DNA of 39,610 nt. It comes from an uncultured bacterium (lineage in GTDB: Bacteria; Patescibacteriota; Saccharimonadia; UBA4664). The notes beneath the pieces are model-generated. The model was not told the DNA's origin. It worked only from the letters and a program-made list of their open reading frames with translations, and did not search any database. The DNA lies in contig CAVUEQ010000002.1 of assembly GCA_963740635.1 (NCBI GenBank), positions 1 to 39,610 on the forward strand, read 5' to 3'. Below are positions 7,746-31,342 of the stretch, piece after piece. A program made the translations under genes and the position numbers. The stretch's first letter is position 1. Each line of letters begins with the position of its first letter.

Positions 7746-10700
7746 CTATTCTCCTATCAATACGTTGCCCTTGTCATCAACGTAGACTTCACCCGGCGCC
7801 AACTTTTTGGGCTTGGGAGCATCAGCTTTTTTAACCTCGACAGCCGGCTTTTCGCCGGTTGGCAAAATTAACTTTCCGGTGAGCGGAGCCGCTTCTTTGG
7901 CGGCCGCCGACGGTTCGTTGTGCTCCGCCTCTTCTTTACTGCCCACTGTTTCGGCCGGCTTTTCCAGCCGGTGACGCCGCCGCCGGCCGGCCCGGTTGCC
8001 GCTGCCCGCATCCCCAGGCGCCCCTCCGGCCGGCACTGCCGGCTTTTGGCCGTCCGGCTTCCCAGCCTGTGCGGGGGCAGGCGGCGCGGGCTGGCCGGCC
8101 GGCTTGCCGGGCGCCGCAGGCTGCGGACCGGGCGGTGCGGCTGCGGTCGGTACGGACGGAGACGCGGGTGGCGGTGCCTGAATGGCCTTGGCCTTCGCCA
8201 CATCCCCGGCCGCCAACGACTGCGCCTCAGGCATTCCAAATTCATCAACCTGCAGCTGGGCAACCGGCGCCGGTTCTTGGCTGAGCATCATTGGCTCGGC
8301 ATGCTTAATAACTGCCGCCGCGGGCGGGGCAGGCGGCAAACTCACGGCCGCGCTCGACGGCATTGGCGGCACAGCTCCCGGCTGGCTAGGCGCTGCTGCG
8401 CCAGGAACCGCCACGGCTGGCTTGACACCCGCGCCAGGAACCGGCGCCGGCGTTGTTGGCCGCGACGGTTGTCCCGAAGCTGGACCCGCGGGTTTCGGCT
8501 GATTGGCCGGCGCGGGAGCAGGCGTTGTCGGTTGCACTCCCTCAGCCTTATTCAGTTCAGCAATCTCTTTGGCAAACCGTTCCTTCGAAGGCACTATCGG
8601 TTCAAGCGGCTCTATCACTTTAAGTCCATGGTGCTCAGACGGCGCATATTTGTCGCGGTCGTCTGGTGGCGGTGCCGGTGGCGAGGCCACACCCAGGTCT
8701 ATATTGCCCGTTAGCTGCCGCTCTTCATCTGGATTTGACTGTACCGGCTCGGGCAGGCGGCGGTGTATGGCCGTACTATCCGGCTTTATCAATGACACGC
8801 TGAGTAGGTCGTCAATTACGTGCTCAGCCTTCTTAATCTGTTCCGCCGGCGTCACGTCAGTAGCGGGCTGAGATTGCTGGGTGGGTGCGCTGGGTTTTAT
8901 CAGTTCCCCGGATCCGGGACCAGACGCGGGCGGCGGTGAGGCGGCGGTAGGCTCCATGGCTGGCGTAGCGGGCGCCGCTGGTGCAACGGGTACTGCGGGC
9001 GCGATCGGCGGGGTAGCCGCCGGAGCCGGTTTTGCTTCGGGCGCGGCCTTGGGCTCAGCCTGTGCTGCCGCGGCTACCGGCTCTGGCGCAGCTACCGGCG
9101 CTTCGGCCGGCTTCACGGGTGCCCCTTGGGTATCCACCGGTGTCTCGTGAGGCCGCATATCCGGCGGCAAAGCTTCGGCCACGCTCACGACCGCATCCAG
9201 CGGCGAAGGCGGTGGCGGGACGGCCGGCTTAGCTTCAGGACCGGCGGTCAGTTTGGCCACCAAATCCGCCTGCCCGGCCGGCATGCCGTCTACCTGCGGC
9301 ACGGGCTGCGACTGCGCCGGCGGCGTGGTCTGCGGGGCCGGCTTGGGCATGGGCTGGGACACAGGCGGCAACGGAGCCGGCTGAGGCGCAGCTGATTGCA
9401 CTAATTGCACACCCTCAGGAAGGCCACTGAGCCTCGGTTTACCATCAGGGGTCAAATCCTCGGATGCATCCGGTGAATTCAATAATTTCTCCGCCGCCGG
9501 ATCCACAAAGTGAATCAACGGTCCGCTAACAGCGGGCTGCTGCGGTGCGGGCGCAGGTTCCGGTACCGGTTCAGGCTGGAACTGCGGGGCCGGTTCGGGC
9601 TTGGCCGGCGGGGCCGGCTCGGGTTCGGCCGCTAACACTGGTGCCGGTGCCGGCCTCAACCGCGGTGCCGGTGCCGGCCGCGGTGCCGACGCGGGCTCCG
9701 GCGCTAGCCGGGGCATTGGCTCTGGCGCTGGTACCGGCCGAGGGGCAGGTACAGGCAGCGGTGCGGGCACGGGTGCAGCAATTGGCTCAGGTCCGGCGGG
9801 TTCCGCTATGGGCTCAGGAGCCGGGGTTACGGCTGGCGCTGTCGGGACCGGCTCGCTCGCGGCCACCGGTTCCGGCACCGGCAGGTCAGCTGGTATGCGC
9901 ACAGGCTCAAGCACAACCTCGGGCGCCGGCCCAGGCTCGGACCCGGACCGCGTCTCAATCGGCGGTTCCTCCAGCACCTGTGGCTCCCCGGCAGGTTCAG
10001 GCACATCCAATTGGGCGGACGCAGGCTCGGCGGCCGGCGGCTGAACCGCTGACTCGGCGGCCGGCGGCTGAACCGCAGGCTCGGGCGGCGTCACGGGAAC
10101 AGGCTCAGGCGCCGCCGGTGCGCTTCCCAGCACATCAATGCCGGCATACGGGTCGTCCGCCAGAGGCTGGCCGTCACCCACAACCGGTCCCGCGGAAGCC
10201 GGCTGGGAGGGCGCCGCCTGCGACGCCGATGGGGGCGGCGAATCGCCCAGAATATCGATGTTCGCGTAGGGATCCCCTTCCAGTGGTTGGCCATCGGCCA
10301 CATATTCCGGCTGAGGCCCCTCACCCAGGAGCGGCACATCGTCCAACGGCGACGGCTCAGCAGGCACGGCGGCGTTAACCGGACCTGAACGCCCGCCACC
10401 GGTAATATCACCAATCGACAGCGTGCCGGGGTCGTTCGGCAACGCCACCGGCGGCGCCCCTATCGGCGGTGCCCCAATCGGCGGCGGCGCCGTAGCCAGT
10501 GTTGCCGCCGCGGCTGAGGCCAAGGCTGTCTGCGGCTGTGGGGCATTTTCTCCAACTTGGCTTTGCGCGGCCACGAGTTGTTGTGCCAACTCGTCCTCAG
10601 CGCCGCCCTGCTGCAGCCCGGAGGCCGGAGATGCGGCAGGCTGCGTTAGGGCGGGTACAACTTGAGCGGGTTGCGGCTGCGCAAACGTCGCCTGCCCCGG

Positions 10701-23730: not shown

Positions 23731-24168
23731 CTAGTTCAGGGCTTTGCCCAGGGCCTCAATCGCCCGCTCAAAGGCCGTTTCATCTTTGAGGCTAAGGTTC
23801 GAAAGAATCGATTTCTGGCGGGCGGCAATTACCGCCGCAGCCTCCCCCGCCGCCTGCTCACCTTTAGGCGTCAGTTTCAGCACTTTCTCGCGCTTGCTGT
23901 GCGGGTTCGCCATTGACTCCACCAGCCCGCGCGCCCCCAGCACCTCCGCCTGGCGCGTCACCACGGCCGGAGTCACCTCCAGGCTGTCGGCCAGCTCACG
24001 CCCGCTCGCTTGCCCGAGTACCTCCAGCCCGTTCAGTACCCGGAATTGAGAAAAGGTCAGTTTAAAACTGACCTTCAGCTCCCGCTCCACCTCTCGCTCG
24101 AGGCCGTTTGAGACCCGGGCGATTTGATTGAGAAGAGATTTCTCGAATTGAGAATTCCTTACCTGCAC
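23731..24168 (-). CDS. MarR-family transcriptional regulator (145 aa from the GTG start)
   Basis: Winged-helix region LTFSQFRVLNGLEVLGQASGRELADSLEVTPAVVTRQAEVLGARGLV. I chose the GTG at 24168 because SD AAGGAG lies 9 nt upstream. The TTG at 24216 in the ORF track coincides with the -35 box. Confidence 0.85.
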   Translation of the reverse strand: MQVRNSQFEKSLLNQIARVSNGLEREVERELKVSFKLTFSQFRVLNGLEVLGQASGRELADSLEVTPAVVTRQAEVLGARGLVESMANPHSKREKVLKLTPKGEQAAGEAAAVIAARQKSILSNLSLKDETAFERAIEALGKALN

Positions 24169-24187
24169 TTCATTGAACTCCTTAAAC

Positions 24188-24216
24188 AATATACCCCTAA
24201 ACAATTTAGGGGTCAA
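24188..24216 (-). promoter_or_regulatory. marR promoter (-35 TTGACC, 17 nt, -10 TATATT) with an embedded 21-nt perfect palindrome ACCCCTAAA-ttg-TTTAGGGGT (candidate MarR operator)
   Basis: The palindrome at 24193..24213 fills the spacer between the -35 (24216..24211) and the -10 (24193..24188). Confidence 0.55.
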
Positions 24217-24380
24217 TAGTTTTTATGGTCTAGGGCCAGGATTATCCCCTCCCCTATCTGTTGAAAGGAAATATTAAGCCGTATTAATAGCCACCAAACC
24301 ACTCCAAACACCACTGAAACGTTGACCCATAACCAGTCGTGGTCTGAATCTTATCCCCAGCTTATCCACACCCCTAAACG

Positions 24381-24406
24381 AAAAAGCCGAACATCATCAT
24401 GTTCGG
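24381..24406 (-). terminator. Rho-independent terminator after hisIE
   Basis: The minus strand reads CCGAACAT-gatg-ATGTTCGG followed by CTTTTT, 36 nt after the hisIE stop. Confidence 0.7.
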
Positions 24407-24441
24407 TCGTTCGGTATTAGCCTCAAATTAGCTTACGGCGG

Positions 24442-25053
24442 CTACTTTGCCCGCTGCCGCAAAACATCCACGACATCCTCCAGCGCTACGCCCTTCGCAA
24501 CCAAGAGCACCAACAAGTGATACAGCAAATCCGCTGCTTCGCCCGCAAATGCAGCCTCGTCGGGGTTTTTCGCCGCAATTACCACCTCCACCGCCTCTTC
24601 GCCGACGTTCTGCGCCACCCTGTCTATGCCACCCTCAAACAACTCCGTGGTATATGAGCCCACAGGCTTCTTCTCTTTGCGCGTCTTAATCAAAGCGTAC
24701 AGATCATCCAGCACCTTCAACTCCGATCCGGCCGGCTGCACATCCCCGAAGCACGAAGAGCTGCCAGTATGGCAGGTGGGGCCGGTGGGCTCGGCCAGAA
24801 TCAGCAGCGCATCACTGTCGCAGTCCGCCTTTATCGACTCGACCTTCAGGCGGTTGCCCGATTCTTCCCCCTTCTCCCACAATCTATCCTTACTCCGGCT
24901 CCAAAACGTCACCCAGCCGCTCTTTTCGGTCTGCCTAAGCGCCGCTTCATTCATGTATCCCAACATCCGGACCTCTCCGGTCTTCACATCCTGAATAATC
25001 GCCGGCACCAGGCCGTCCGCTTTCGCAAAATCTATCTCTAACGTTTTCATCAT
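24442..25053 (-). CDS. hisIE: Bifunctional phosphoribosyl-AMP cyclohydrolase / phosphoribosyl-ATP pyrophosphatase (203 aa)
   Basis: HisI part GLVPAIIQD..MLGYMNEAAL..SRSKDRLWEKGEESGN..DCDSDALL..GPTCHTGSSSCF. HisE part GSYTTELFEGG..VGEEAVEVVIAA..EAADLLYHLLVLL. Confidence 0.93.
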   Translation of the reverse strand: MMKTLEIDFAKADGLVPAIIQDVKTGEVRMLGYMNEAALRQTEKSGWVTFWSRSKDRLWEKGEESGNRLKVESIKADCDSDALLILAEPTGPTCHTGSSSCFGDVQPAGSELKVLDDLYALIKTRKEKKPVGSYTTELFEGGIDRVAQNVGEEAVEVVIAAKNPDEAAFAGEAADLLYHLLVLLVAKGVALEDVVDVLRQRAK

Positions 25054-25820
25054 TAACTCCTTACAGCCACGCCCGCGGTCCGCAGGTAGGCCTTAACTTC
25101 TGGTATGCTCAGCTCGCCAAAGTGAAACACCGACGACGCCAGCGCGGCATCAGCAACGCCGGGTGCTAGCACGTCGGCAAAATCCTGCAGCTTCCCAGCG
25201 CCGCCCGAGGCCACCACGGGGATGCGCAAAAACCCGTTCAAGCTCCGCTGTAACCGCAAATCGTACCCCTGCTTCATTCCGTCGGTATTCATAGTGTTAA
25301 GCACTATCTCACCGGCCCCCCGGTCCTGCACCTCCCGCACCCAGTCCAGCGTGTCGCGGCCGGTATTCTTCATGGTCTCCACCCGGCCGGTGTGCGAATA
25401 CACCATATCGCGCCCATCCTTCTGCATCGAATCAATTCCCACCACTATGCATTGCGCGCCAAACATCGCCGCCCCCTCATTAATAAGGTCAGGGTTCTCC
25501 AGCGCGGCGGTATTAATGGAGACCTTGTCCGCGCCCGCCCGCAGTATAGCCTGCATGTCAGCAATTGTGCGAATGCCGCCGCCCACCGTCAGCGGGATAA
25601 AGATTTCGCGGGCGATCTCGCGCACCAGACTGATCATAGTGGCCCGCCGGTCGGCGCTGGCCGTAATGTCATAGAAAACCAGCTCATCGGCGCCCTCGGC
25701 AGCGTATTTCTTGGCCAGCTCAACGGCGTCGCCGGCGTCGCGGTGCCCGTCAAATTGCACCCCTTTCACCACCCGGCCGTCCCTGATGTCCAGGCATGGG
25801 ATTATGCGCTTAGCTAACAC
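25053..25820 (-). CDS. hisF: Imidazole glycerol phosphate synthase cyclase subunit (255 aa), GTG start
   Basis: LAKRIIPCLDIRDGRVVKGVQF.., GADELVFYDITAS, PLTVGGGIR. Confidence 0.95.
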   Translation of the reverse strand: MLAKRIIPCLDIRDGRVVKGVQFDGHRDAGDAVELAKKYAAEGADELVFYDITASADRRATMISLVREIAREIFIPLTVGGGIRTIADMQAILRAGADKVSINTAALENPDLINEGAAMFGAQCIVVGIDSMQKDGRDMVYSHTGRVETMKNTGRDTLDWVREVQDRGAGEIVLNTMNTDGMKQGYDLRLQRSLNGFLRIPVVASGGAGKLQDFADVLAPGVADAALASSVFHFGELSIPEVKAYLRTAGVAVRS

Positions 25821-26520
25821 GATTGATCTCCGAAAGTTTTATTTTGCCTTCGTACAAGGCTTTACCCACAATCGCAGCTTCCACTCCCATGGCCGCAAGC
25901 TTCGTCACAGCCTCGGCCGTGCTTACCCCGCCACTGGCAATGATCGGCATTTTGGTTGCCTTCATCAGCCTCCCCATCTCCTCATAGTTCGGCTCAGTCA
26001 GGGTGCCGTCTTTTGAAACGTCGGTATATAAGAACCGCTGCACGCCCAACTGCTCCAGCGCCGCTGCCGTAACCAGCAGATCGCGCCCATCCGCTTTTTG
26101 CCATCCGCGCGTTACCAGCTGCCCGGCCTTGGTTTCCAGAGCCACGACTATCCCGGGCGCGTTAGTGCGCAGCAGCTCCTGCAGGGCGGCCGGGTCTTCA
26201 AAGGCCATGGTGCCCACGATCACCCGCGACACACCGGCCTCCAGCAAGCGCCTCGCGTCCGGCGCCGTACGAATACCACCCCCGACCTCCACCGGAATGC
26301 TCAGAGCGGCCGCGATCTGCTTAAGGACCTCCAGATTCGCCATCCGGCCATCCTTCGCCCCATCCAGATCCACAACATGCAGCAAGCGGGCGCCCTCCGC
26401 CTCCCAACGCTTGGCCATAGCCACCGGATCGGTACCGTACACAGTTTGCTGCCCGAAGTCGCCTTGCATCAAACGCACGCACTTGCCGCCGCGTATATCA
26501 ATTGCCGGAATTACTATCAT
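25810..26520 (-). CDS. hisA: ProFAR isomerase (236 aa)
   Basis: MIVIPAIDIRGGKCVRLMQGDF.., HVVDLDGAK, PVEVGGGIR, IIASGGVS. Confidence 0.93.
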   Translation of the reverse strand: MIVIPAIDIRGGKCVRLMQGDFGQQTVYGTDPVAMAKRWEAEGARLLHVVDLDGAKDGRMANLEVLKQIAAALSIPVEVGGGIRTAPDARRLLEAGVSRVIVGTMAFEDPAALQELLRTNAPGIVVALETKAGQLVTRGWQKADGRDLLVTAAALEQLGVQRFLYTDVSKDGTLTEPNYEEMGRLMKATKMPIIASGGVSTAEAVTKLAAMGVEAAIVGKALYEGKIKLSEINRVS

Positions 26521-27149
26521 GCCGCCTCCCAGAAATTACGCAGCAGTCGCAAGCCGGCGTCGCCGCTTTTCTCCGGATGAAACTGTACCCCAAAAATGTT
26601 GCCGCTTTCAAACACGCTGCAAAATTGCCCGTCATAATCCGTTGTACCCTTTACATCATCTGCATCGGCCGGCGCGCAGTAATACGAGTGGACGAAGTAA
26701 AAGTGGCTGTCGGCAGGAATGCCCCGCAGCAATTTCGAACCTAGGACAGCCCGCACCTCATTCCAACCCATCTCCGGCACCTTCAAACTGGTCTCAAATT
26801 TCTTCACCTTTCCCGGCACCAGGTCCAGGCACCGCGCGGGACCTTCCTGGCTCTTTGTCAGCAGCAGCTGCATTCCCAGGCATATGCCCAGCACTGGAGT
26901 TCCGGCTTGAGCCGCAGCCGCCACAGCCACATCCAACCCGCTCTCCCGCAGGCGCCGCATACCTTCGCCGGCCGCACCCACGCCGGGCAATATCAGCGCC
27001 TTGGCGTTTTTCAGCGCCTCGGGATCGTCCGAAACTTCAAACGGAATGCCTAGCTTCTCCAGGGCATTGGCCACACTCGCCAGATTACCCAACCCATAAT
27101 CGATCACGACGAGCCGGTCGCTTAACCGGGCCGGATAGGACGGTTTCAT
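26517..27149 (-). CDS. hisH: Imidazole glycerol phosphate synthase glutaminase subunit (210 aa)
   Basis: VVIDYGLGNLASV, ILPGVGAAG, GICLGMQLL, FVHSYY, GVQFHPEKS. Confidence 0.93.
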   Translation of the reverse strand: MKPSYPARLSDRLVVIDYGLGNLASVANALEKLGIPFEVSDDPEALKNAKALILPGVGAAGEGMRRLRESGLDVAVAAAAQAGTPVLGICLGMQLLLTKSQEGPARCLDLVPGKVKKFETSLKVPEMGWNEVRAVLGSKLLRGIPADSHFYFVHSYYCAPADADDVKGTTDYDGQFCSVFESGNIFGVQFHPEKSGDAGLRLLRNFWEAA

Positions 27150-27778
27150 GCTGTGACCGTAACGAACCTCTCCTTAAACGCCGCTTTTTGGCTGTTTTCA
27201 AACGGTGACTCCACAAACAGTGCCTGCGAGCCAAGCACTGTCGCCAGCTCCCGCAAACCGTTGGCCTTAAGGGTGCTGCCGCTCTGCGTAATATCACAGA
27301 TGCCGTCAGCCAAACCAAGTGACGGCGCAACCTCTACCGAACCGTTCATTTTGATCACCGAAGCGTCAATCCCGTTCTCTGCCAAAAACTTCTTCAGGCT
27401 ATTGGGGTAAGTGGTTGCGATGCGCCTACCATCCAAGTCCGCAATCGACGTAATACCAGAATCGTTTGGCACTGCTAGCACGAGGCAGCACTCCCCAAAT
27501 CCCAGTTCTCTCACCGCCGGTACGGTCAGACCGCGCTCCAACACCAAATTCTCGCCCACGATTCCAAAATCAACCGTGCCATTTGCGATGTACTGGGGGA
27601 TATCGCCGTGCCGCACAAACACCAGCTCAGCCTCGATGTTACTGCACCGCACCACCAAGCTTCTAGCGTCATCCAGGTCAAATTCCACTCCCAGCGAACG
27701 CACGAAACTCAAACTAGGCCCTTTCAGCCGCCCTCCGCTTTGGATCGCGATCCTGATTGGCCTGTTTATGCTATTCAT
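27146..27778 (-). CDS. hisG: ATP phosphoribosyltransferase, short form (210 aa, no C-terminal regulatory domain)
   Basis: IRIAIQSGGRL.., VRHGDIPQYIANGTVDFGIVGEN, RIATTYPN, DITQSGSTLKANGL. Confidence 0.9.
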   Translation of the reverse strand: MNSINRPIRIAIQSGGRLKGPSLSFVRSLGVEFDLDDARSLVVRCSNIEAELVFVRHGDIPQYIANGTVDFGIVGENLVLERGLTVPAVRELGFGECCLVLAVPNDSGITSIADLDGRRIATTYPNSLKKFLAENGIDASVIKMNGSVEVAPSLGLADGICDITQSGSTLKANGLRELATVLGSQALFVESPFENSQKAAFKERFVTVTA

Positions 27779-28061
27779 TTTTACCCTGCTTCTCGAGCAT
27801 CAACTGGTATCCACCCGTACCGTCTTTCAACCATTTAGATACGCGAGCAATAGTAGTTGAACTCAAGCCCGTCTCTTTCACTATCTTGGAATATGACACC
27901 TTCTCACTCAGCATTTGCGCCGCATTCCAGCGGCTGGCAAATTCCCTTAGCTCACCCTCGGTCAGCAGATCACGAAAAAAACTCTTGGCCTCGTTCATAT
28001 CCTGAAGAGCCAATATTGCTGACAGCAAATCCTGCGTGTCCGGGTTGTCCCAAGTCTCCAT
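27771..28061 (-). CDS. TrpR-like / YerC-YecD family DNA-binding protein (96 aa), first gene of the his operon
   Basis: FFRDLLTEGELREFASRWNAAQML..SYSKIVKETGLSSTTIARVSKWLK matches my recollection of the Trp-repressor-like YerC/YecD family. The stop overlaps the hisG ATG by 8 nt. Confidence 0.75.
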   Translation of the reverse strand: METWDNPDTQDLLSAILALQDMNEAKSFFRDLLTEGELREFASRWNAAQMLSEKVSYSKIVKETGLSSTTIARVSKWLKDGTGGYQLMLEKQGKNE

Positions 28062-28078
28062 GCTTTACTCAACTAAAC

Positions 28079-28121
28079 TACTTTATTTAAGTAAAGTACT
28101 CCACTCGGGCTCTTCTGTCAA
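28079..28121 (-). promoter_or_regulatory. his-operon promoter (-35 TTGACA, 17 nt, -10 TACTTT) overlapped by the palindrome TACTTTA-cttaaa-TAAAGTA (candidate operator)
   Basis: -35 at 28121..28116 and -10 at 28098..28093. The 20-nt palindrome at 28098..28079 starts with the -10 hexamer and covers the predicted transcription start, 18-37 nt upstream of ATG 28061. Confidence 0.5.
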
Positions 28122-28360
28122 CTACTTATCCGTCTCCGAACTCCCCGTTGACTGACTCCGAATTGTATTCAACCAACTAAACTGCGATTCTCTCGACATG
28201 CCACGTTGTTTTAATGTAGTATTTTTGTCCAGGATTTATCAAATCCTCACATTTGGCTTGTGCTGTGATATTAACGAATTTTCATAAGATTTAGGTCAAA
28301 GATCGCTAGTATATTCGTTTTCCTCACATAAATTATTGCAATGGTAATAAACAATCATTG

Positions 28361-30562
28361 CTAAACGAGCTTCACAATTCCACTAGTTGCGTCCACGTCT
28401 ACCGTGTCACCTGTCTTTAATGTGCGCGTGGCACTCTCTGTGCCTATTACGCAAGGAATATTCAGCTCCCGGCTCACAATTGCAGCATGACACAGCATCC
28501 CACCCTCGTCAGTCACGATTGCTGCGGCCTTTTCGACTGCCAGCATCAGGCTTGGTGTGGTCATAGTGGTTACAAGAATCTCGCCGGGCCTCATTTCTAC
28601 CATCGATAAGTCATTCAGAACCACCCTCACCCGGCCACGCACCCGTCCGCCGCAAGCTGTCACTCCCTTTAGCGCCTCGTGATTCTGACTCTCGTCTCGT
28701 GCTGGGCGGCCCTCACTCACGCCGGATGCAAACCATTCCGTAACACCCAGCCTCGTCTCGAATCTAAAACCCTCCCGGCGCTCGCGTGCCCGTGATTGCA
28801 ATGCATCAGTACCAATCCCGCCTTCCAAACCTTCGATAATTTCCTGCCAGGTCAGATGGATCAACTCATCGACATCAGACAGCCCAATCTTTGCCGCCAC
28901 CCGACTGAGCTTGGGCAGCTCCCGCTCATGAGCCATAAAGAACACATCGAGCCGGTAGCTGCGCAAATACAAGTATTTCGACACCACATCAGCTAAATCC
29001 CGAGCATCACTATCCTTGCCCAATGCTTCAATTGCTGCGTCCCGCTCGCGCATTTGCCGCGTGCGGTGGTTTTTCATATCCAGTAGCCGCTTGGCGCAGT
29101 CACCCTTGAGCCCGTTCTGAAGCCGGATCACAACATCCCGGGCCGACTCCGGCTGGCCTGCGTAATACATCCGCCCCATCCAGCCAAAATCCTGGCGATA
29201 CGCGTCAATCAACTCCTGAATCTTGCCAAACTGCCCTGCTATCCGTCCGGTCAACGAATCTGCATCCAACCGTATCCACTCTTCGTAATCCGGGACACTG
29301 GCCTGAACCTCCGCGCCCAGTTCGAGCAACCGCAGCAGGTTATGGACCTCGTGCGTCGGCTGAGTGGCAAACTTCAGCGCCGCCACAACGGCCTCGGCTT
29401 TCTGCGCGTCATTGAGACGCTCCGAGACGAATGCATTCAAGAAATCCTCAAGCTCAAACTGAACGGTAATCATTACGAGCAGATTAGATGCATGAGCCAA
29501 TGCGACCTCGAAATAGCCCTTCACTGCCTCGGCATCCGACTTGCCGGCAGCCTGCCAGGTGGCGTCCAATAATTTCTGGGCCGATCTCTCGCACGTCTTA
29601 GCATATTCCTGAAAAAACCGCAGGCCATCGCGCGCCACTCGGTCGTGCACGACAGCCTTGGCCGCCGCCAGCTCATCCTTATCAAACTGAAACGCCAACC
29701 CCTCACGGCGGATATTCGAAAAACCAATCGGCAGCCCTGTTACACTCTGGATCCGCGCCCGATCCTGGCCCGAAACCGCCAGGCTCAAGAATAACGGCGT
29801 GTGCCGCCGCGCGACCGTTGTCACCCATGTAATATACTTCTGCTTTGACCGTTTGGGCAGCGCAGTAATCGGACGCGACTGCACGATGTAAATCTTCCCT
29901 CGCTCTATTGCCCACTCAATGTCTTGCGGCTGACCGAAATGCCGCTCAATTTGACTGGCAATATTTGAGAGCTCACTCACCTGGTCATCGGACAGGACCG
30001 GCTTCGTGCTACGCTGTTTGCCCTGCATGCGGCTCAGGACCCTTCCGGAAGTTTTCTCCGCACGAATTGTTTCCGGTGTTACCTTCCCTTGGACCAGTAA
30101 TTCGCCCAGTCCATTCACTGATTCGATTACCAGTTCGTCCTCACCACTAACAGGATTAGTTGTAAAAATTACACCGGATACTTCACTTTCAACCATCCTC
30201 TGCACCAGAACTGCCACTTTCTGCGACCCTAGGCTGGTCTTCTTCTCTCTCGCATAGGATTGCGCCTGCGCCGAATCAATTGAACCCTGGCACCTCTTCA
30301 CCGCCTCAATCAAACCGTCATGGGTAGTATTGAGAAACGTATCGAGCTGCCCAGCCCACGACGCCGCACCCGAATCTTCGCCCACCGCAGACGACCGCAC
30401 CGCGACTTTATCCGCGCCCAAACCAGCAAAGGCTGACATTATTTCCAGTTCCAGCGGCCCTGACAGGTTTGCCGCCTGCACGCGCGATGTAATTACAAAG
30501 CCATCGGGCACCGGCAAACCGGCCTGAAGCATCTCACCCAAAGGCCCGGCCTTCCCGCCCAC
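28361..30562 (-). CDS. PEP-utilising enzyme family protein: N-terminal PPDK_N/ATP-grasp domain, ~390-aa helical middle, C-terminal swivelling His domain (733 aa)
   Basis: N-terminus GGKAGPLGEMLQAGLPVPDGFVIT..VAVRSSAVGEDS..IEWAIERGKIYIVQSRPIT. C-terminus ILVTTMTTPS..AIVTDEGGMLCHAAIVSRELNIPCVIG. GTG start with SD GGGAGG 8 nt upstream. The domain order is that of rifampin phosphotransferases and PEP-synthase-like proteins. Confidence 0.85.
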   Translation of the reverse strand: MGGKAGPLGEMLQAGLPVPDGFVITSRVQAANLSGPLELEIMSAFAGLGADKVAVRSSAVGEDSGAASWAGQLDTFLNTTHDGLIEAVKRCQGSIDSAQAQSYAREKKTSLGSQKVAVLVQRMVESEVSGVIFTTNPVSGEDELVIESVNGLGELLVQGKVTPETIRAEKTSGRVLSRMQGKQRSTKPVLSDDQVSELSNIASQIERHFGQPQDIEWAIERGKIYIVQSRPITALPKRSKQKYITWVTTVARRHTPLFLSLAVSGQDRARIQSVTGLPIGFSNIRREGLAFQFDKDELAAAKAVVHDRVARDGLRFFQEYAKTCERSAQKLLDATWQAAGKSDAEAVKGYFEVALAHASNLLVMITVQFELEDFLNAFVSERLNDAQKAEAVVAALKFATQPTHEVHNLLRLLELGAEVQASVPDYEEWIRLDADSLTGRIAGQFGKIQELIDAYRQDFGWMGRMYYAGQPESARDVVIRLQNGLKGDCAKRLLDMKNHRTRQMRERDAAIEALGKDSDARDLADVVSKYLYLRSYRLDVFFMAHERELPKLSRVAAKIGLSDVDELIHLTWQEIIEGLEGGIGTDALQSRARERREGFRFETRLGVTEWFASGVSEGRPARDESQNHEALKGVTACGGRVRGRVRVVLNDLSMVEMRPGEILVTTMTTPSLMLAVEKAAAIVTDEGGMLCHAAIVSRELNIPCVIGTESATRTLKTGDTVDVDATSGIVKLV

Positions 30563-30611
30563 AAGTCCCGCCTCCCGGCCTCACATTATGACGCCATTAT
30601 CGCATATGATG

Positions 30612-31241
30612 TTATTCGACTTTTATACCTAGTTCCGACGCCAATATCGGCGCGAGAACCACCAGCTGCACTGCATCAATAGAAACACCGTGCATACTGA
30701 GTACCCCTTTAATGCCGGACAGGTTTGATCCCGGGAAGCGCACGTTTTCGAAATTTGCGGCATCAAATACCGCCCCATCCAAGTCACAATTCTCAAACAC
30801 AACGCCGGTCAGCTTAGCGCCATAAAAATCAGCTTCGCGCATGTTACACTCCGTAAACATAACATTCTTGAGTTTAGATGCCCGAAAATTCGTCAGGTCT
30901 AGCTTGGCTTTCCTAAAGATGACATCCTTTAGGTTGGAGGCCGTCACCGCCATTCCCGACAGCACACCGCCGCTCACTTCGACTCTCAACCAGCCGCTGC
31001 CGTCAAACACGGCCCCAAACATCATGATGCCGTCAGCGCTCACATCAGTCAGGTTAAGATGCTTAATCTTGCCCGATGCCAACGACACCCGCGCTAGTCG
31101 CGACGAATCAATTGCCAGGCTATTGGTTTGGACGTTCGTGAAGTCGGCATCCTCGATCGCCACGTTCAAAAGCTCTTGATCCCGGTCCAGAGTGACCGGC
31201 TTATACTCATCAAGCTCGTTAGGAATATTCAGCTTCATCAC
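30612..31241 (-). CDS. Pentapeptide-repeat protein (209 aa)
   Basis: Runs of A(D/N)LxX-type pentapeptides, for example NLKDVIFRKAKLDLTNFRASKLKNVMFTECNMREADFYGAKLTGVVFENCDLDGAVFDAANFENVRFPGSNL. Confidence 0.85.
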   Translation of the reverse strand: MMKLNIPNELDEYKPVTLDRDQELLNVAIEDADFTNVQTNSLAIDSSRLARVSLASGKIKHLNLTDVSADGIMMFGAVFDGSGWLRVEVSGGVLSGMAVTASNLKDVIFRKAKLDLTNFRASKLKNVMFTECNMREADFYGAKLTGVVFENCDLDGAVFDAANFENVRFPGSNLSGIKGVLSMHGVSIDAVQLVVLAPILASELGIKVE

Positions 31242-31266
31242 CTACCGGCTACAATTAACTACAAAA

Positions 31267-31342
31267 TGGTCGGGGTGAGAGGACTTGAACCTCCGGCCTC
31301 AGCGTCCCGAACGCTGCGCGCTACCAACTGCGCCACACCCCG
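31267..31342 (-). tRNA. tRNA-Pro (anticodon CGG), CCA encoded
   Basis: The minus strand reads CGGGGTG-TG-GCGC-AGTTGGT-AGCGC-G-CAGCG-TTCGGGA-CGCTG-AGGCC-GGAGG-TTCAAGT-CCTCT-CACCCCG-A-CCA. It has a 7-bp acceptor stem and a canonical T-loop, and the anticodon loop TTCGGGA carries CGG. Confidence 0.93.

Follow-up and report, generated by a model that had tools for sequence, protein, structure and literature searches.

The window analyzed here is a 39,610-nucleotide stretch of DNA that makes up the whole of contig CAVUEQ010000002.1 in GenBank assembly GCA_963740635.1, from an uncultured member of the Saccharimonadia (Patescibacteriota; lineage UBA4664), and it carries, between positions 24,442 and 28,061, a six-gene histidine (his) operon that encodes only the upper part of the pathway, the first of the six being a gene for a regulator of the YerC/HisR family. 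As assembled, this pathway stops at imidazole-glycerol phosphate (IGP) and 5-aminoimidazole-4-carboxamide ribonucleotide (AICAR, also called ZMP) and cannot yield histidine. The explanation that we favor, and to which we would give about an even chance, is that a HisR-controlled his operon of the Patescibacteria type was acquired horizontally and has lost hisD, hisC, and hisB, what is left being either vestigial or of minor use as an upper pathway. The component genes and their regulator are familiar, whereas in the searchable literature we found no description of the truncated layout, of its host, or of the core-only HisG clade to which its first enzyme belongs.

An Intact Operon for the First Five Steps of Histidine Biosynthesis

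Genes were identified by the curated equivalog cut-offs of NCBIfam and domains by Pfam, and missing genes were sought with six-frame hidden Markov model (HMM) searches across the complete assembly of the source genome (G000; 1.12 Mb in 4 contigs, 86.4% complete, contamination 0.29%), of which the window is the entire contig C2 (39.6 kb). Six intact open reading frames (ORFs) follow one another on the minus strand in the order yerC–hisG–hisH–hisA–hisF–hisIE, each overlapping the next, by 8, 4, 4, 11, and 1 nt from yerC to hisIE, and a hairpin closes the series:

27771..28061, minus strand: yerC/hisR, first cistron, a TrpR-family regulator of 96 amino acids (aa) (PF01371, 73.7 bits; TIGR02531, 71.9 bits against a cut-off of 42.2)
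27146..27778, minus strand: hisG, ATP phosphoribosyltransferase, 210 aa, catalytic core only (TIGR00070, 191 bits against 75.8)
26517..27149, minus strand: hisH, glutaminase subunit of IGP synthase (TIGR01855, 237 bits against 105)
25810..26520, minus strand: hisA, ProFAR isomerase (TIGR00007, 263 bits against 229)
25053..25820, minus strand: hisF, cyclase subunit of IGP synthase (TIGR00735, 351 bits against 295)
24442..25053, minus strand: hisIE, bifunctional phosphoribosyl-AMP cyclohydrolase and phosphoribosyl-ATP pyrophosphatase (NF002747, 278 bits against 187)
24387..24406, minus strand: terminator-like hairpin, then CTTTTTCGTT (a T run), 36 nt past the hisIE stop

Histidine steps 1–5 (HisG, HisE, HisI, HisA, and HisH/HisF) are all present above the equivalog cut-offs. 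The original prediction, made from the sequence alone, had described a six-gene chain with overlaps of 1–11 nt, followed by a terminator and limited to the conversion of phosphoribosyl pyrophosphate (PRPP) and ATP into IGP and AICAR; the ORFs at the positions listed on the minus strand, the hairpin and T run at 24406..24387, and the identities given by the NCBIfam cut-offs bear it out on each of these points. At the junction of hisG and hisH, stop and start form a seamless ATGA overlap. The enzymes also retain most of their conserved columns, with conservation in 95% or more of about 119 homologues as the criterion: 30 of 30 in HisG, 82 of 83 in HisF, and 59 of 61 in HisIE. In the last of these, residue 148 is Asn, at a position of the HisE motif AQ-K-VGEE where Lys is invariant in 119 homologues, the closest ones included.

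In the 86.4%-complete assembly, neither hisD (TIGR00069) nor IGP dehydratase (IGPD; HisB, PF00475) gave a match or even a fragment, and the control search for IGPD matched 14 of 14 reference genomes. The hisC model retrieved generic class-I aminotransferases only, the best of them at 156 bits against a cut-off of 277, and the sole match to the hisZ model was the true histidyl-tRNA synthetase (HisRS), which scores 432 bits on the hisS model and 155 on the hisZ model against a cut-off of 272. The original prediction had remarked that hisB, hisC, hisD, and hisZ elsewhere in the genome would make this an ordinary split regulon; the whole-genome search recovered none of the four over the cut-offs in the assembled part. 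IGP would be left, in the assembled genome, without an encoded fate.

A HisR-Type Regulator, Probably Histidine-Responsive, Leads the Operon

By comparative genomics, YerC has been identified as HisR, a histidine-dependent repressor of his genes that is often autoregulated and is sometimes the first gene of its operon, with in vitro validation, and histidine as the co-repressor, established in Ruminococcus gnavus only (PMC9413887). Three elements can be read upstream of the window's yerC:

28116..28121, minus strand: -35-like hexamer TTGACA, read from the sequence
28093..28098, minus strand: weak -10 candidate TACTTT, after a 17-nt spacer from TTGACA, in the left arm of the palindrome below
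28079..28098, no strand assigned: predicted HisR operator, the 20-bp palindrome TACTTTACTTAAATAAAGTA, overlapping the -10 candidate and ending 18 nt before the yerC ATG

The palindrome fits the published HisR consensus cacTTTAnnnnnnTAAAgtg (PMC9413887), and the pattern ACTTTA-N6-TAAAGT, with one mismatch allowed, has a single site in the 1.12-Mb genome, shuffled genomes having 0–2. The promoter is left uncalled by a consensus scan, and its -10 element matches at 3 of 6 positions. As for the regulator itself, the window's YerC is 63% identical to the yerC products that adjoin hisG in two other Patescibacteria (G527 and G435). To judge from these motifs and similarities, the operon would still be wired as a histidine-repressed biosynthetic unit. 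The original prediction had regarded a TrpR-family first cistron as a departure from the classical arrangement, a view that does not survive: the gene is HisR/YerC, its operator fits the consensus, and yerC leads complete his operons in other Patescibacteria; the regulatory arrangement is already known and is the usual one in this phylum.

A Core-Only HisG, Most Probably Independent of HisZ

The HisG of the window has no C-terminal regulatory domain (HisG_C, PF08029), its ORF ending in the ATGA overlap with hisH. Its nearest homologues are about 205 aa long and 49–66% identical, those with a source label coming from Pacebacteria, Magasanikbacteria, Gracilibacteria, and other Patescibacteria, and the next nearest are long forms of Bacteroidota. 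In a phylogeny of HisG, the short Patescibacteria forms make up one clade (99% support in the approximate likelihood-ratio test SH-aLRT) beside long forms, in a tree that had no HisZ-dependent outgroup and so leaves the direction of change unproven. Against solved structures, the window's HisG scores 132–139 bits to long forms or to the truncated core of the Campylobacter jejuni enzyme and 72–92 bits to HisZ-dependent short forms. The short clade also contains natural fusions, TrpR/YerC–HisG of 305 and 297 aa and HisI–HisG of 319 aa (P0004, P0054, and P0034).

The original prediction had held that a short HisG needs the partner HisZ, missing here, and had proposed placing the enzyme among short or long forms. 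The enzyme is indeed short (210 aa, no regulatory domain), but the expected affinity to the HisZ-dependent short forms was not recovered: it belongs to a core-only Patescibacteria clade that stands nearer to long forms. Moreover, five Patescibacteria with hisD had no hisZ match over the cut-off, among them G481, whose HisG falls inside the short clade and which has hisD, hisC, IGPD, and hisH. The need for HisZ is not supported, and the window's HisG is most probably, from the comparison of sequences, a natural core-only enzyme that works without it. Since HisZ-free short HisG has been described as insensitive to histidine (PMC10795190), the window's HisG should escape inhibition by histidine. 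In the searchable literature we found no description of a core-only, HisZ-free HisG clade, which could be a useful test case for the gain or loss of allostery in ATP phosphoribosyltransferase.

Complete and Truncated his Operons Across Patescibacteria

In a sample of 400 Patescibacteria genomes, hisG is found in about 5% (19 genomes), among which 11 or 12 have hisD and 10 have IGPD; in the searchable literature we found nothing relevant on the his genes of this phylum or of the candidate phyla radiation. The fullest operon, in G709, reads yerC–hisG–hisD–hisC–hisB–hisH–hisA–hisF–hisIE, and in three further genomes (G527, G481, and G445) yerC–hisG precedes hisD–hisC or hisC–hisD. In nearly all contexts that extend past hisG and contain any late his gene, hisD comes next (in G527, hisC and then hisD), the exception being G522, where the his genes are scattered; those of G418 are also spread over several loci. 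A locus search with HisG in genome and metagenome contigs returned 12 distant loci, and the following his gene, where visible, was hisD.

The other enzymes of the window have their closest homologues in metagenomes. HisF falls within a 26-member clade of metagenome proteins that are 59–80% identical to it; HisF and HisIE share a clade of metagenome proteins at the same range of identity, a point in favor of maintenance, with one member labelled Saccharimonadales, and one close HisF homologue comes from a metagenome-assembled genome (MAG) labelled Mycobacteriales. Two contigs apparently hold both a close HisF and a close HisIE (80% and 71% on 2,021 bp; 70% and 62% on 29,503 bp), and the close HisG homologues (64–66%, on contigs of about 1.2 kb) have no contig in common with these HisF/HisIE pairs; both observations are weak and are not built on here.

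Truncation of the pathway is also seen outside the window. Five genomes that are 99–100% complete, one of them closed (G590, G632, G672, G435, and G071), have hisG together with hisI, hisE, and/or yerC, and no hisA/F, hisD, or IGPD was found in them. Two of these upper-only loci are:

8968-10560 of locus L058 (G590:C1:403000-422999)
8498-10676 of locus L055 (G632:C1)

The HisG of G590 and of G632 is a long form with the histidine-binding domain, and purH is present in 4 of the 5 upper-only genomes, versus 6 of 40 relatives of the source genome.

A Variable Slot in an Otherwise Conserved Contig

The contig is genuine. It holds the only gyrB, pheS, pheT, trpS, and argS of the genome, with no second copy on the other contigs; its RmuC is 82–88% identical to that of same-genus genomes; and the order LDT–pheT–pheS–trpS–rmuC–marR–(slot)–tRNA-Pro(CGG)–h168–addA–h686–argS is kept in four of them (G001, G002, G005, and G006) at 58–88% amino-acid identity. 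The his block lies in the slot of this order:

23731..24216, minus strand: marR-family gene, conserved flank of the slot, 69–80% identical in G001, G002, G005, and G006
24217..31266, no strand assigned: variable slot between marR and tRNA-Pro(CGG), with the his block, a 733-aa phosphoenolpyruvate (PEP)-synthase-like gene (28361-30562), and a pentapeptide-repeat gene (30612-31241)
31267..31342, minus strand: tRNA-Pro(CGG), other boundary of the slot

The slot measures 7 kb here versus 1.2–2.9 kb, with other content, in same-genus genomes, and is bounded by the 3' end of tRNA-Pro(CGG), some 3.2 kb from the his block. There is no integrase or recombinase among the slot genes and no direct repeat of the tRNA-Pro end in the slot. 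The GC content at third codon positions (GC3) is 0.64–0.74 in the his genes and 0.58 in yerC, compared with 0.60–0.79 in the flanking core genes. Of the features expected of a tRNA-linked integrative island, the slot shows the position next to a tRNA gene, whereas an integrase, repeats of the tRNA end, and a deviant composition are absent.

As the original prediction had proposed, relatives were compared for the same six-gene block, with hisG, hisD, and hisF as the genes tested. Both hisG and hisD are absent from all 40 genomes of a closer set drawn from the same genus, family, and order, and a true hisF was found in none of 400 genomes of the class, 25 other genomes of the family, and 261 genomes of the class that are at least 99% complete, three draws that overlap. 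With none of the tested genes found among the sampled Saccharimonadia, the simplest reading is a horizontal gain in the line of this species, not necessarily a recent one.

Two neighboring observations concern the contents of the slot. The 733-aa PEP-synthase-like protein has an ATP-grasp domain and a swivelling His domain and no PEP/pyruvate barrel; its family has several copies in the source genome and in relatives, and a split paralogue (277 + 507 aa, 44–49% identical) lies at G000:C1:665134-667487, directly beside purN–purM–purB. Besides, YerC/HisR-like genes with HisR-type operators occur in 6 of the 40 relatives, which have no his genes. The neighbors of these genes (loci L095, L096–L098, L099 in G004, and L100) vary: an M20 peptidase is one of them and a GNAT fusion another, and G004 and G006 have in common an unknown soluble protein (283 or 356 aa); a transporter role for these neighbors was considered and rejected, given their mixed families and lack of membrane segments. 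The yerC-like gene of G006 (G006:C19, about 1436-2771 of L100; operator CACTTTACTTTGATAAAGTG) occupies the same marR/tRNA-Pro slot as the his block of the window. The two regulators were not retained as orthologues: their identity is 43%, versus 65–88% for the flanking genes, and their orientation is opposite.

Purine Metabolism and the Fate of AICAR

The original prediction had raised a histidine-independent use of the operon as a supply of AICAR for purine or thiamine metabolism and had called for a search for purH and the de novo purine genes. That search was productive: purA, purH, purC, purE, purB, purM, purN, and a full-length purL (1296 aa) lie in one region of contig C1 and purD lies on C3, and a PRPP synthetase is present as well; purF and IMP dehydrogenase were not found in the 86.4%-complete assembly. 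Compared with its 75%-identical orthologue in G002, the purH gene (G000:C1:656039-657664; 1279-2904 of L068, minus strand, in a purE–purC–purH cluster) seems to shift frame some 70 codons short of its end, which could be either an assembly error or a real lesion. The same biosynthetic region (G000:C1, about 646000-672400) also holds, beside the pur genes, aspartate kinase, homoserine dehydrogenase, homoserine kinase (thrB), and asd, an unusually rich biosynthetic equipment for a Saccharimonadia genome.

The supply itself, in the form proposed, is not supported. The his route spends one ATP for each AICAR made and brings no net purine gain, at most turning adenine nucleotides into IMP, and the pyrimidine of thiamine derives from 5-aminoimidazole ribonucleotide (AIR), not from AICAR. 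Because the genome has its own purine cluster, AICAR can be made by the normal route, with purH available for recycling, and because no IMP dehydrogenase was found, IMP could return to AMP only. The his operon is not an AICAR supply.

Weighing the Explanations

According to the favored explanation, a complete operon would have been transferred and hisD-C-B then lost from between hisG and hisH. In the present cell, histidine-bound HisR would sit on the palindrome over the promoter and shut the operon off; when histidine drops, the HisZ-independent and probably feedback-insensitive HisG would act with HisIE, HisA, and HisH/HisF to turn PRPP, ATP, and glutamine into IGP and AICAR, of which AICAR could be recycled to IMP by the purH that the genome encodes, whereas IGP would have no encoded fate. 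The Lys148Asn change in HisE and the apparent purH frameshift, both read from sequence, are possible early signs of relaxed constraint, for which the uniqueness of the block among the sampled relatives and the dead end at IGP also speak.

Several points weigh against this loss scenario. A random deletion rarely leaves a junction as seamless as the ATGA of hisG/hisH; the six genes have kept intact frames and translational coupling, when a useless operon that consumes ATP should vanish fast from a reduced genome; and the block is not visibly recent, since its GC3 values fall inside the range of its flanks or slightly under it. The absence of hisB, hisC, and hisD is itself unproven, because the genome is just 86% complete. 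Finally, the recurrence of modules with the upper pathway only in complete Patescibacteria genomes, as far as gene content can tell, hints at selection. Part of the tension may be relieved by HisR: with the operon silenced in a histidine-fed cell, the block would be almost neutral and would disappear more slowly.

If the late genes are not lost, they may be elsewhere, and hisD, hisC, and hisB (possibly with a phosphatase) could lie in the unassembled part of the genome, roughly 14% of it, as parts of an ordinary split regulon with which the cell makes histidine. We hold this to be unlikely, though there is much that it would accommodate: at 86.4% completeness the assembly has 34 tRNA genes and none for Ser or Asp, it misses purF and IMP dehydrogenase where the rest of the purine pathway is present, the intact operon remains tied to a histidine repressor, and G522 and G418 do scatter their his genes. 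Yet the sampled relatives are without the his genes tested in them (hisG and hisD in 40, hisF in several hundred), so that a second, separate acquisition would be needed; hisD, or hisC–hisD in G527, adjoins hisG in nearly all other contexts, G522 being the exception; and the six-frame HMM search returned no fragment of hisD or IGPD.

Alternatively, the truncation may be what is selected, the upper pathway serving, independently of histidine synthesis and under a histidine gate set by HisR, to produce AICAR/ZMP or convert adenine nucleotides to IMP. The coupled and intact genes, the seamless hisG/hisH junction, and the conserved columns would be expected of such a module, as would a HisG with neither histidine-binding domain nor partner; the source genome has purH, as do 4 of the 5 Patescibacteria genomes, 99–100% complete, that keep upper his genes only. 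These points are set against the cost of one ATP per AICAR in a genome with its own AICAR route (purD, N, L, M, E, C, B), the lack of a detected IMP dehydrogenase, the apparent purH frameshift, the loss of an invariant Lys from HisE, the uniqueness of the block among the sampled relatives, and a histidine repressor that fits biosynthesis better; the association with purH, moreover, comes from few genomes that are not independent. A selected role is accordingly doubtful here, and it is kept in consideration because other assemblies, too, have upper his pathways that are truncated. In its broader form, by which Patescibacteria would repeatedly keep the upper his steps, under histidine control by HisR or by the HisG domain, for a job other than histidine, with the window as the most extended member, the proposal is also a tentative one that we would not expect to prevail; such modules might, gated by histidine, turn adenine nucleotides into AICAR/ZMP and IMP, or might provide a starvation signal of the ZMP type.

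That the contig is misbinned or chimeric, with his genes from another organism, is very improbable: it is a separate contig of 39.6 kb with a block unique in the sampled class and a close HisF homologue in a Mycobacteriales-labelled MAG, but on this one contig the block is flanked on either side by genes in synteny with four same-genus genomes (58–88% identity), its gyrB, pheS, pheT, trpS, and argS are the only ones of the genome, contamination is 0.29%, and the composition of the block matches its flanks.

Saccharibacteria and other bacteria of the candidate phyla radiation are usually described as host-dependent amino-acid auxotrophs. The present species has most of the purine pathway, genes of the threonine branch, and, on the favored explanation of gain followed by loss, a horizontally acquired and histidine-regulated half of the his pathway. 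Should the truncation prove real, the operon may show how transferred operons are pared down in reduced genomes; or, considered with the modules of hisG plus hisI in other complete Patescibacteria genomes, it may give a first indication that the upper his steps are useful in themselves.

Comparison with Known Systems

In enteric bacteria, PurH recycles the AICAR that HisHF sets free, a histidine–purine link that belongs to the classical purine nucleotide cycle. In the window, AICAR would come from the same five enzymes, and purH stands in the purine cluster of the genome; in the enteric link, however, AICAR is a by-product of making histidine, when the histidine branch of the window has no encoded continuation.

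With the HisZ-dependent HisGS enzymes of Lactococcus, Thermotoga, Psychrobacter, and Acinetobacter, the HisG of the window shares a length of about 200–230 aa and the lack of a C-terminal regulatory domain. It differs from these HisGS/HisZ systems in that its genome has a true HisRS only and no HisZ, and in that the similarity between the HisG sequences is clearly lower than to long forms. Its best match in the structural database is the truncated core of the long-form HisG of C. jejuni (PDB 5UB9, 138.7 bits; Mittelstadt et al. 2018, Biochem J 475:247, cited in PMC10795190), which likewise consists of the catalytic domains only and has no regulatory tail. This core is reportedly an active dimer that is not inhibited by histidine. 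It is a laboratory truncation, whereas the form found in the window is that of a whole natural clade, known here from sequence.

As regards regulation, the closest parallel is with the HisR-regulated his operons of Firmicutes, Synergistetes, Elusimicrobium, and others (Ashniev et al. 2022, PMC9413887), which have, like the window, a regulator of less than 100 aa with PF01371/TIGR02531 and a 20-bp palindrome with a TTTA-N6-TAAA core upstream of hisR, in keeping with autoregulation. The host of the window's operon belongs to the Saccharimonadia (Patescibacteria), a phylum outside that study, and the operon itself differs from those described there by its lack of hisD, hisC, and hisB (PMC9413887).

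The nearest relatives in layout are the complete operons of other Patescibacteria (G709, G527, G481, and G445), which also open with yerC and hisG, end with hisH–hisA–hisF–hisIE, and have no hisZ. Identity to their products reaches 63% for YerC and is 41–49% for HisG; HisF is just 48–50% identical to that of the complete operons and belongs to a different clade, of metagenome proteins. Between hisG and hisH, these operons have hisD, hisC, and IGPD, whereas in the window hisG overlaps hisH directly.

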